Source: Patescibacteria group bacterium
Lineage (GTDB): Bacteria > Patescibacteriota > Minisyncoccia > Portnoybacterales > UBA2143
NCBI GenBank assembly: GCA_018830295.1
Contig: JAHJSM010000001.1
Location: 386,203-450,202 of the forward strand
DNA length: 64,000 nt
Direction: 5' to 3'
In this document: piece after piece, positions 25,742 through 62,817 of the stretch
How the letters are laid out: each line of letters begins with the position of its first letter
How positions within the stretch are numbered: the first letter of the stretch is position 1
Notes under the pieces: model-generated
Database searches by the model: none
What the model was told of the DNA's origin: nothing
Seen by the model: the letters and a program-made list of their open reading frames with translations, nothing else
Translations under genes and position numbers: made by a program

Positions 25742-26275
25742 ATGCTTACAAAACTTCTTAAAATTCAGGAAAAAATCAATGACTACTTTCTTTCTTCCGA
25801 CTGGGAGGAAAATCTTTTGATTTTGAAAGTAATTTCTGTTCTTATTTCTGCTTTGCTCCTTTTTATTATTTTCTTCTTAACATTCCGATTAAGAAAAAGC
25901 GTTAAAAAATCATTGGAATTAGTAGCGGGAAGCGTTTCGTCCGCGGGCAAATCAACGAAAGTTGTCAGCAAAGAATGGGAATCGGTTTTGGAAAAAATAG
26001 AAAAGAAAGATGAGAGCAGTTATAAGCTGGCAGTGATTGAAGCGGATAAAATTTTGGACGACTTGCTCAAAAAAATCGGCTATGTCGGAGATGATATGGG
26101 GGAGCGGCTTAAAAAAATTACCGCCGCCCAACTATCCAACATTGACGAGGTCTGGCAAGCGCACCGCGTCCGCAACCGCGTCGTCCATGAACCCGATTTC
26201 CAACTAACCCGTCCCCAAGCCAAAAGAGCGATAGAAATCTATCAAAAGGCGTTAGAGGACTTGGAGATGATATAA
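25742..26275 (+). CDS. hypothetical membrane protein
   Basis: ORF with one hydrophobic helix. No recognised domain. Confidence 0.4.
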   Translation: MLTKLLKIQEKINDYFLSSDWEENLLILKVISVLISALLLFIIFFLTFRLRKSVKKSLELVAGSVSSAGKSTKVVSKEWESVLEKIEKKDESSYKLAVIEADKILDDLLKKIGYVGDDMGERLKKITAAQLSNIDEVWQAHRVRNRVVHEPDFQLTRPQAKRAIEIYQKALEDLEMI

Positions 26276-26278
26276 ATG

Positions 26279-26352
26279 CGGGAGCGACCGGGCTCGAACC
26301 GGCGACCTTCTGCGTGACAAGCAGATGCTCTAACCAACTGAGCTACGCCCCC
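26279..26352 (-). tRNA. tRNA-Asp (GUC)
   Basis: Cloverleaf read from the minus strand: GGGGGCG acceptor, D-arm GCUCAGUUGGUUAGAGC, anticodon loop UUGUCAC, T-arm GGUUCGAGCC. CCA is not encoded. Confidence 0.9.
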
Positions 26353-26382
26353 ATTGTTTTAGACCCTTCGCAGGTTCTAAAG

Positions 26383-26454
26383 TAGCAGGAGTGGGGATCG
26401 AACCCACCATAGGTCGCTTATGAGACGACCTCAGACACCAGTCTGCTTCCTGCC
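26383..26454 (-). tRNA. tRNA with a CAU anticodon (elongator Met or Ile2-like) and an atypical anticodon arm
   Basis: Acceptor GGCAGGA/UCCUGCU, T-arm GUGGGUUCGAUCCCCAC. Nine nt separate the 5-bp anticodon stem halves (UCUCAUAAG). That implies a sixth U·G pair with a CUCAUAA loop, or an expanded loop. Confidence 0.65.
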
Positions 26455-26482
26455 TCGGGTGGGTTTTAAATTAATAACCTTG

Positions 26483-26789
26483 TTGCGGGGGCAGGATTCG
26501 AACCTGCAACCTCAAGGTTCTTTGCGATTTCTATTTATAGAAGAAATCTGTATTAGCCATTTGTTTCCAAATGGAATGGACTATCCCATCATCTTTTTGC
26601 CTAAAAAAGATGTTCCCATTATAGTCTCTGAACCTTCCCTAATATGTATTAGGGCTTGGCTGCCGATTGCCGAGGGTTATATAACCCTGACGGTTTTCCA
26701 GCAATTTCGGGAATTTTCCACAAGATGTCGCCATCCTGCGCCACAATTTTATTTATGGGCCTCGCGAGCTGCCATTGCTCCACCCCGCG
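26483..26789 (-). tRNA. initiator tRNA-fMet (CAU) interrupted by a putative group I intron in the anticodon loop
   Basis: Exon 1 (26755-26789) is CGCGGGGUGGAGCAAUGGCAGCUCGCGAGGCCCAU. Exon 2 (26483-26519) is AACCUUGAGGUUGCAGGUUCGAAUCCUGCCCCCGCAA. The first 14 nt and the 3' strand CCCCGCA-A match E. coli tRNAfMet, including the C1·A72 mismatch. Confidence 0.75.
26520..26754 (-). other. putative 235-nt group I intron inside the tRNA-fMet gene
   Basis: 5' exon ends in U and can pair with an intron GUGG guide (a U·G P1). The intron ends in G. It contains a CAGAGACUAUAAUGGG stretch with the P7-region 'AGACUA' hallmark. No ORF. Confidence 0.6.
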
Positions 26790-26794
26790 TTGCT

Positions 26795-26823
26795 ATTATA
26801 GGGGATAATTTGTTTGATAGCAA
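26795..26823 (-). promoter_or_regulatory. promoter (TTGCTA-17-TATAAT) driving the tRNA-fMet/intron gene
   Basis: The -10 box lies 6-7 nt upstream of the mature tRNA 5' end on the minus strand. Confidence 0.55.
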
Positions 26824-26886
26824 GTTTTTTATGTCCACTTGCCCCAAAAGGTGAGAAGTGGTAAAATACACCCAATACAATAGGGT

Positions 26887-27276
26887 ATGAATTTATCTGT
26901 TTATTTATCAGGGTTGTTTATTGCCGTTTTATTGGCGAGCGCCTGTTTGGCGGCTATTTTAATTTATCTTAGTCCAACCCCTGTCAGCCCCTCTATTCTC
27001 GTCCTATTTTACTTAAGTTTATCCATCGCTTCCACGGGAATTTTCACTTTGACAGGCTTGTTTATTAGATGGATTTCCCACAGAAAAGGATTCTTTTTAT
27101 CGGAAAATCGCGTTTTTAGGCAATTGGAAATTTCTTTCAGGCAGGGCTTGCTTTTATCGGTTATTCTCGTCTCCGCTCTAATTCTGCAAAGCCAAAGAGC
27201 GTTGGCGTGGTGGCATTTAATTTTGTTAGTAGGTATAGTTGGGATAGCGGAATGGTGGTTAGGACATAGGACATAA
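26887..27276 (+). CDS. hypothetical small membrane protein
   Basis: Three or four predicted TM helices. No recognised domain. Confidence 0.4.
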   Translation: MNLSVYLSGLFIAVLLASACLAAILIYLSPTPVSPSILVLFYLSLSIASTGIFTLTGLFIRWISHRKGFFLSENRVFRQLEISFRQGLLLSVILVSALILQSQRALAWWHLILLVGIVGIAEWWLGHRT

Positions 27277-49460: not shown

Positions 49461-49852
49461 GACCCGAGCAAATTAGATAGTCGCCTCGCAATTTTGTGGG
49501 GAGGAAAGTCCGGGCGTCGCAAATGGCAGCGGGTAATACCCGCCGGTCGCGAGATTAGGGAAAGCGCCACAGAGACAATATTTCTTTGGTTTTGGGGCAA
49601 TCTCCAAAACTGGGGTAAAGGTGAAAAGTGAGGGATTAAGACCCCTCTCTCCGCAGGGAGACCTGTCGGAGTGGCAAGCCCTGCCTGACGCAAGAGCAAA
49701 CCATTCCGCAATATTGCGGGATGATGAAAAGTAGCTCGCTTGAGGTTAGCGGCAACGCTAACCCTAGATAGATGACTATCCAAGACCCTCCGTCGCCCTT
49801 TGGGCTATGGCGGGTGAGACAGAACCCGGCTTATTATTTGCTCGGGTTTTTG
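49461..49852 (+). ncRNA. rnpB: RNase P RNA (bacterial type A-like)
   Basis: P1 pairing CCCGAGCAAAU / AUUUGCUCGGG. P4 strands GGAAAGUCCGGGC and ACAGAACCCGGCUUA. GGUAAAGGUGAAA motif. U-tract at the 3' end. Confidence 0.85.
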
Positions 49853-62651: not shown

Positions 62652-62722
62652 GCGGATGTAGCTCAATGGCAGAGCGTCTGCTTCCCAAGCAGATGACGAG
62701 GGTTCGATTCCCTTCACCCGCT
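62652..62722 (+). tRNA. tRNA-Gly (CCC)
   Basis: Acceptor GCGGAUG/CACCCGC with one A·C mismatch, D-arm GCUCAAUGGCAGAGC, anticodon loop UUCCCAA, T-arm GAGGGUUCGAUUCCCUU. Confidence 0.85.
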
Positions 62723-62728
62723 CACGAA

Positions 62729-62800
62729 GCCGAGGTAGCTCAAGGGTAGAGCAACGCACTCGTAACGCGTAGGTTGTGGGTTCGATTCCCACCCTCGGCT
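62729..62800 (+). tRNA. tRNA-Thr (CGU)
   Basis: Acceptor GCCGAGG/CCUCGGC, D-arm GCUCAAGGGUAGAGC, anticodon loop CUCGUAA, T-arm GUGGGUUCGAUUCCCAC. Confidence 0.85.
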
Positions 62801-62817
62801 CACGAATTAGCAATTTA

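Follow-up and report, generated by a model that had tools for sequence, protein, structure and literature searches.

A predicted self-splicing group I intron family after the anticodon of initiator-type tRNA(CAU) genes in Patescibacteria

A gene for an initiator-type tRNA(CAU) from a member of the Patescibacteria is split between U36 and A37 by an insert that is, with high confidence, a functional group I intron, and its structure predicts that it is self-splicing. The insert has a compact, Azoarcus-like architecture, with helices P1 to P9, GNRA tetraloops on P2 and P9, and no open reading frame (ORF); by architecture alone, we would assign it to type IC3. As judged from aligned sequences, the intron is one of a family whose members interrupt this tRNA at this position in many relatives that have not been cultivated, and the family has co-evolved with the tRNA. 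We studied the intron in a 64,000-nt stretch of DNA, which we call the window; coordinates are positions in this window, and the tRNA genes, the intron, and the promoter are all on the minus strand. The same sequence, without a difference, also lies within GCA_018820055.1.

The 5' exon (26755-26789; CGCGGGGTGGAGCAATGGCAGCTCGCGAGGCCCAT, read from 26789) is 35 nt long, represents nucleotides 1-36 in the standard tRNA numbering, and has the anticodon CAU at its end. The intron (26520-26754, 235 nt) begins with AAATAAAATTGTGG (also given as AAAUAAAAUUGUGG) and ends with CGCAAAG. The 3' exon (26483-26519; AACCTTGAGGTTGCAGGTTCGAATCCTGCCCCCGCAA, read from 26519) begins with AACC and represents nucleotides 37-73, without an encoded CCA. 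The split gene was not seen in the window by ARAGORN with its default settings or by the Rfam tRNA model. If ARAGORN is allowed a 235-nt intron at 36/37, then it reports a 73-base tRNA-Met(CAU) cloverleaf, of which 72 nt make up a normal tRNA and one base is additional. This intron search delimits both exons; the 3' exon is also delimited by comparison to E. coli, and the intron by Rfam and by covariation (see below). A sequence-only reading of this DNA had proposed an initiator tRNA split after U36 by 235 nt, and the coordinates and the length agree with the sequence, the ARAGORN intron search, and Rfam.

The same reading had proposed that the insert is a group I intron. The Rfam model for these introns (Intron_gpI, RF00028) matches the minus strand at 26557-26764 with a score of 87.7 bits (E = 5e-21), as compared to a gathering score of 50. 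The match is to the full length of the model (positions 1-253) and aligns P1, P2, P3, P4-P6, P8, and P9. A tmRNA had been raised as a rival model, but neither ARAGORN nor Rfam identified a tmRNA anywhere in the window. The sense strand of the intron does not contain an ORF.

The spliced tRNA has C1xA72, G2:C71, C3:G70, A11:U24, and A73 as its discriminator base. At both ends (the first 14 nt, and the last 8 nt, 3' CCCCGCAA), it agrees base for base with an E. coli gene in the three-copy tRNA-Met cluster beside mltA, and this cluster is the best match in E. coli (80% identity to the same gene over the full length). We take the cluster beside mltA to be the metZWV initiator cluster. The likeness to E. 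coli tRNAfMet at both ends, including C1xA72, had already been read from the sequence and is borne out. The anticodon stem is A29:U41, G30:C40, and G31:C39, that is, two G-C pairs instead of the strict 3GC rule; this au/GC/GC stem is a natural initiator variant that is found in alpha-proteobacteria and some mycoplasmas (PMC5389676). Position 33 is a C, which gives an anticodon loop of CCCAUAA. C33 is unusual in a bacterial initiator: in the survey of PMC8887486, the initiators from bacteria carry U33. In multicellular eukaryotes, C33 is typical for initiator tRNAs. C33 and A29:U41 are both departures from the textbook bacterial initiator, and neither was remarked on in the sequence-only reading.

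In the structure that we propose for the intron, P1 (26741-26758) forms between C33-C34-A35-U36 of the exon plus A1-A2 of the intron and a guide sequence, UUGUGG (intron nt 9-14). CCAUAA, with the splice junction after its U, pairs with UUGUGG, and U36.G11 marks the 5' splice site. P2 (26721-26738) is capped by the GNRA tetraloop GCGA. The 5' strand of P3 (UUCCC, 26709-26713) pairs with GGGAA (26613-26617) to give the P3/P7 pseudoknot. The P4-P5-P6 domain (26632-26703), which was aligned to the Rfam consensus, includes P4 (UGCUGG/UCGGCA), P5 and its extension, P6 (GC/GU), and the P6a hairpin. The guanosine-binding helix P7 has G-A-GACUA as its 5' strand (26622-26628), with a GGUUCA junction before it, and UAGUCC as its 3' strand (26578-26583), which was placed by both the Rfam alignment and the covariation alignment. 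The P8 hairpin (26590-26612) lies between the second strands of P3 and P7, and the P9 hairpin (26557-26574) has a GAAA tetraloop. An extra hairpin (26526-26548) follows P9, ahead of the 3' splice site, and is present only in the window and in the loci L088, L104, and L117; in the aligned sequences of the window and L117, two of its pairs show compensatory changes by eye (A-U to G-C and U-A to C-G). The intron ends in the terminal G, or omega-G (26520). Parts of this had been anticipated: the CCAU/GUGG pairing of P1 with its U.G, the G at the end of the intron, and the AGACUA motif of P7 are all present, an ORF is lacking, as proposed, and a P3-P7 core, whose absence had been named as a reason to doubt the group I assignment, was recovered.

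To find relatives of the intron, we scanned two collections of sequences. A scan of species-representative genomes with a pattern that combined the exons and the core gave 52 matches. Three of these are true 36/37 homologs (L013, L017, and L045, in MAGs labelled Saccharibacteria or Paceibacterota), and four are 33/34-type introns in CAU tRNAs (L016, which ends at a contig edge, L033, L034, and L042). We rejected the other 45 as chance matches in coding DNA. A scan of JGI metagenomes with a clade-specific P7/J8-7 pattern gave 68 loci, and the family is ascertained by that pattern. One locus (L003) was left out: it has the same 177-aa gene, a truncated tRNA-Asp, and unrelated sequence downstream, and it looks like an assembly chimera.

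Across the two collections, the whole pre-tRNA could be delimited in 68 of 72 loci, which gave 56 distinct sequences. All 68 are initiator-type tRNA(CAU) genes that are split after U36, with an intron that ends in G and a 3' exon that starts with AA. The introns are 189-300 nt long, and none of the 56 has room for an endonuclease gene. Intron_gpI matched all 12 of a diverse set of family members, with scores of 58-94 bits. The most distant of the 56 sequences is just 62% identical to the copy in the window, and the closest loci (L088, L104, and L117) are 97-99.7% identical. In the loci that we fetched, a search for an uninterrupted version of this tRNA gene gave nothing usable: the matches that we checked lay inside the split genes or in the neighbouring tRNA-Met.

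We aligned the 56 distinct precursors and projected the structure derived from the window onto the alignment, with P3 and P7 as a pseudoknot. The projected structure includes the four stems of the tRNA as well as P1, P2, P3, P4, P5, P6/P6a, P7, P8, and P9. Standard pairs were found in 98.3% of the cells, as compared to 37-46% if the 3' partners were slid by 1-3 columns. Changes on both sides were seen for 40 of 70 pairs, and none of 500 shuffles reached any of the observed measures. Combined with the Rfam match, this covariation supports the identification of the insert as a group I intron. P3, P5, P6a, and P8 each have several covarying pairs. Compensatory changes affect all seven pairs of P2, six of the seven pairs of P9, and three of the five pairs counted in P8; P3 is paired in 99.3% of cells and has two compensatory pairs. 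In P4, changes are confined to one strand. P7 and its flanks do not vary in the family; however, the pattern used for the search dictated P7, J6/7, J8/7, and some of P3, so their invariance is uninformative. The stems of the tRNA exons also covary, and the exons are as conserved as the intron.

The most telling evidence from the alignment is the outermost exon pair of P1, between tRNA position 33 and the guide, which is C-G in 44 of the 56 sequences, U-A in the other 12, and never unpaired. The U36.G pair at the splice site is present in all 56, as is the terminal G. P9.0, in which the next-to-last base of the intron pairs with base 2 of J7/9, is U-A in 47 sequences, A-U in 6, and A-A in 3. 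L2 and L9 are GNRA loops in every sequence (56/56), which fits the Azoarcus-type IC3 fold, where two tetraloop-receptor contacts act as clamps.

These features suggest how the precursor would be made and spliced, and they are consistent with the usual two-step pathway of group I introns. A sigma-70-type promoter that abuts the 5' end of the tRNA would transcribe the fMet-Met-Asp array. In the transcript, the guide UUGUGG would pair with C33-C34-A35-U36 and the first two bases of the intron to form P1, and a free guanosine bound in P7 would attack after U36. The terminal G (26520), positioned by P9.0, would then replace the guanosine in the P7 site, and the two U's of the guide, which were paired to A1-A2 of the intron, would pair instead with A37-A38 (P10). 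Once ligated, the exons would again form a CCCAUAA anticodon loop. The tRNA could not work until the intron had been removed.

The sequence-only reading had also given the gene a consensus promoter of its own at the 5' end of the tRNA, and a place in an array of three tRNAs that includes a second unusual CAU tRNA. Both hold up. Among sigma-70-like sites in the region, the putative promoter TTGCTA-17-TATAAT (26823-26795) scores best, with 10 of 12 matches to the consensus. It comprises a -35-like hexamer (TTGCTA, 26818-26823), identified by a promoter scan, and a -10 hexamer (TATAAT, 26795-26800) that ends 5 nt before the first nucleotide of the tRNA. Of 48 distinct sequences upstream of family members, about 28 have a TAnnnT that ends 5-6 nt before the tRNA, usually with a TTG-type -35 about 17 nt ahead of it, although the spacers differ. 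Given this distance in both the window and its relatives, transcription probably starts at the mature 5' end of the tRNA or within 1-2 bases of it. Downstream are a second tRNA(CAU) with an atypical body (26382-26454), which is presumably the elongator tRNA-Met and which was found by ARAGORN and scores low with the Rfam tRNA model (32.5 bits), and tRNA-Asp(GUC) (26278-26352), which was found by both ARAGORN and Rfam. The same order (the intron-containing fMet gene, tRNA-Met(CAU), and tRNA-Asp(GUC)) recurs in many related loci. In the window, the array sits between plus-strand genes at 25742-26275 and 26887-27276.

We considered whether the region might encode a protein instead, with the RNA features being incidental. 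A plus-strand ORF (26420-26854, 144 aa) is open through the whole region in the window, and it is called as a gene in locus L002. However, its frame is open over the pre-tRNA in just 4 of the 56 homologs, and it has stops even in L088, L104, and L117, the near-identical loci. The ORF has no match in Pfam, it would overlap two tRNA genes and the promoter, and the substitutions across the family have the pattern of paired RNA helices. We rejected the ORF as a gene, and the chance that it is one seems negligible. A split gene could also be a pseudogene with a decayed intron, in a genome that has an uninterrupted initiator gene elsewhere. The window does cover just 64 kb of a genome of roughly 0.74 Mb, and the non-canonical C33 and the two G-C pairs of the anticodon stem would fit with decay. 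But the core helices are intact, and compensatory changes persist across 56 sequences that are as little as 62% identical, in the exons as well as the intron, with equal conservation of the exons and with a conserved promoter. Also, the guide has changed so as to compensate for C33, which would be relevant only if splicing is selected. Because both the intron and the exons show compensatory evolution, a decayed pseudogene is very unlikely.

If the gene is intact, the identity of its tRNA still matters, as an anticodon of CAU by itself does not separate Met, fMet, and Ile2. If the host were tRNA-Ile2 (with the anticodon lysidine-AU) or an elongator tRNA-Met, then the intron would be an ordinary member of the Ile2 36/37 (Azoarcus-type) class: it shares with the classical Ile2.5Ug class both its point of insertion and the CAU of the exon that P1 binds, and an anticodon stem with two G-C pairs rather than three would be less of a surprise. 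Other features of the tRNA speak against this reading. Position 1:72 is C.A in 32 of the 56 sequences, U-A in 11, A.A in 7, A.G in 4, and U.G in 2, so it is mismatched or weak in all of them, and A11:U24, GC at 2:71, and CG at 3:70 are each found in 55 of the 56. Furthermore, the best match in E. coli is the initiator cluster, and many of the loci have a separate, canonical tRNA-Met(CAU) just downstream. These features, and the elongator gene next door, make it unlikely that the tRNA is Ile2 or an elongator, and we treat the host as initiator-type.

How does this initiator intron compare to known tRNA introns? The sequence-only reading had pointed to the introns in tRNA-fMet of cyanobacteria, and this context was misleading: the classical fMet site is 33/34 rather than 36/37, and the host here belongs to the Patescibacteria (CPR). 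Proteins encoded in the window carry the name Patescibacteria group bacterium in NCBI nr, and the DNA ligase falls into a cluster, at 90% identity or more, with one from Candidatus Portnoybacteria, so the host is probably Portnoybacteria-like. The element is of a well-known class, in a phylum other than the one that reading pointed to. There are four classical classes (Williams 2020), namely Leu (34/35), Arg (36/37), fMet (33/34), and Ile2(CAU) (36/37). Among the entries that we used from PMC13011429, all of the tRNA-fMet introns are at 33/34; these come from Cyanobacteriota and Bacteroidota (Table S5) and from Microgenomatia (Table S3). The fMet introns of L034 and L042 are likewise at 33/34. 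In the classical fMet.2Ug introns, such as those of Synechocystis and Gloeobacter, the anticodon is in the 3' exon, whereas here it is in the 5' exon; their P1 pairs with other bases of the exon; and some copies carry a homing endonuclease gene, as compared to none of the 56 members of this family. Nor could the window intron be placed at 33/34: ahead of the intron, the loop has no U other than U36, and the 3' exon starts with AACC, without a CAU.

We also ran an HMM for the family against 13 known intron sequences. All of the scores were weak (8-43 bits), with no clear nearest class. In this crude test, which considers only the sequence, the Gloeobacter fMet intron scored 18 bits, which is below the Leu, Asn, Arg, and Ile2 introns. 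An approximate sequence for the Azoarcus intron did not match the HMM, and we draw no conclusion from this. In its architecture, the Azoarcus intron is like this family: it is compact, its P2 and P9 are capped by GNRA loops, and it does not contain an ORF. The Azoarcus-type Ile2.5Ug introns and the Arg.5Ug introns are inserted after position 36, as in the window, but their hosts are tRNA-Ile2 or tRNA-Arg instead of an initiator-type tRNA. Ile2.5Ug even shares the triplet of the 5' exon, with CAU pairing to GUG, according to the class definition in Williams 2020. Against the family profile, the Arg 36/37 introns and the Ile2 36/37 introns of Bacteroidota score just 22-27 bits, with the window family as a separate lineage. 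The family also has clade-specific sequences in P4 and J6/7 (UGCUGG/CGGCAG and GGUUCAGAGACUAUAAUGGG).

Within the same phylum, introns are known from tRNA-Asn and tRNA-Asp, and these also hide tRNA genes from annotation (Nakagawa et al. 2026, PMC13011429, in the sections cited here). Of the known introns, the one in tRNA-Asn of Dojkabacteria matches the profile of the family best, at 43 bits, and it shares GGAAGGUUCAGAGACUA. However, the Asn and Asp introns of Patescibacteria are at 35/36, are of class IA, and contain long inserted segments that separate P7 from P7' (same sections of PMC13011429). That survey covered 95 complete genomes of Patescibacteria, and in those sections, it reports neither an intron at 36/37 of a CAU tRNA nor an intron of IC type.

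The sequence comparisons indicate that the window family is a separate lineage rather than the classical fMet intron moved to another position. Set against the Cyanobacteriota and Bacteroidota entries of Table S5, as far as these were available to us, it appears to join the host of one classical class to the site of another. Introns can be transferred by reverse splicing with a match of 4-6 nt (PMC3984707). Because the Ile2 and initiator tRNAs have a common target, CAU followed by AA, it is plausible that the intron could have moved between CAU tRNAs by this route.

In this organism and most of its relatives, standard tRNA finders either overlook the initiator tRNA gene or call it wrongly. Even when we ran ARAGORN's intron search on the family loci, it called no tRNA in 26 of 74, and many of the others were called as tRNA-Leu(aag) or tRNA-Phe(aaa). 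The initiator tRNA has been colonised at two positions of its loop, 33/34 and 36/37, and the second of these is also used in tRNA-Ile(CAU). The finding thereby extends the 2026 survey (PMC13011429), in whose cited sections the tRNA introns of Patescibacteria are 35/36-biased and not of IC type. The family also provides a natural set of bacterial initiators with C33, in which base 33 is tied to RNA-RNA pairing within the unspliced transcript, and so offers a clean case in which an intron constrains, or is constrained by, a functionally critical base of a tRNA.

A broader proposal is more doubtful, although possible: that a large clade of Patescibacteria has long kept this ribozyme in what is probably its single initiator gene, and that U33, which is otherwise almost universal, changed to C33 together with the guide of the intron, which gave a metazoan-type CCCAUAA loop. 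If so, then all translation initiation in these bacteria would depend on guanosine-dependent self-splicing, and the supply of initiator tRNA could be gated by the intron in response to GTP or Mg2+. Long retention of the ribozyme would also explain why initiator tRNA genes have gone undetected in many CPR genomes.

In 47 of the 56 initiator tRNAs of the 36/37 intron family (alignment A1, loci L045 to L121), the D loop is AGUAGUA, which lacks G18, and the T loop is UGCAAxU, in which G replaces the near-universal U55. The remaining nine members have a GG-containing D loop, and their T loop is always UUCRAxU; these include the window's own initiator tRNA, which lacks the AGUAGUA/UGCAAxU combination. 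Because D-loop type and T-loop type are perfectly associated across the 56 members, we suggest that an A18-G55 pair replaces the G18-U55 tertiary pair in the 47 tRNAs with AGUAGUA.

The introns of this family also vary in length. An insertion of about 50 nt lies in the P5 extension in L070, L076, L082, L084, L090, L111, L114, and L121 (A1 columns ~128 to 178), with the conserved sequence …CGCGACAACG…GAACGCTTAAAAA…, and another of about 80 nt lies in P6 in L058, L066, and L079 (A1 columns ~218 to 300). Both are peripheral domains that were gained inside the family. The contigs of these members carry further tRNA genes as well.

Some of the loci examined fall outside the family. CAU tRNAs with group I introns of the classical type, inserted between positions 33 and 34, were found in metagenome-assembled genomes (MAGs) of Omnitrophota (L042), Saccharibacteria (L034), Elusimicrobia (L016), and Chloroflexia (L033). 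The intron of L042 starts with CAUUGAAAAG, and the sequence after U33 in L016 starts with CAUCAG, so CAU lies directly 3' of U33 in the unspliced gene; this is why our exon search pattern matched these loci. Both the classical class and the window's 36/37 type therefore occur in Patescibacteria-labelled MAGs. Another locus, L003 (ENA/JGI contig k141_519570), has a 177-amino-acid gene identical to the window's, but beyond this gene tRNA-Asp is represented by its 3' part alone, and the sequence then becomes unrelated. The intron and the fMet gene are absent from its sequence after the 177-amino-acid gene, and L003 is probably a chimera of metagenome assembly.

The sequence-only reading had described the array's second tRNA(CAU) (26382-26454, minus strand) as unusual, and its body is indeed atypical: it has G1·U72, position 8 is A rather than U, the D loop (CUGGUG) is short, and the anticodon stem apparently has 6 bp. 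It scores just 32.5 bits with the Rfam tRNA model and was dropped by the filter in the whole-window scan. In several related loci (such as L063 and L099), its counterpart is a canonical elongator tRNA-Met. Elsewhere in the window, tRNA-Gly(CCC) and tRNA-Thr(CGU), 6 nt apart (62652-62801, plus strand), are both canonical and intronless. A class A bacterial RNase P RNA (49465-49848, plus strand; 220 bits) indicates that the organism has RNase P, although the promoter of the split tRNA abuts the mature 5' end.

The tRNA promoter seems to share its 100-bp spacer with a second promoter that points the other way, toward a 129-amino-acid gene at 26887: the promoter-like sequence at 26839-26867 (plus strand) reads TTGCCC-17-TAAAAT and includes the TG of an extended -10 element.

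One public assembly (L002) annotates a gene of 144 amino acids at 26420-26854 (plus strand), an open reading frame that runs opposite the intron, exon 1, the promoter, and some of the second tRNA. We rejected it as a spurious call because stop codons break the frame in 52 of the 56 homologs. Even with its intron search on, ARAGORN made no tRNA call for 26 of 74 sub-sequences of family loci (such as L057, L069, L070, L073, L076, and L080), and it mis-called many others as tRNA-Leu(aag) or tRNA-Phe(aaa) with a shifted intron. Routine annotation would miss the initiator tRNA genes of these organisms.
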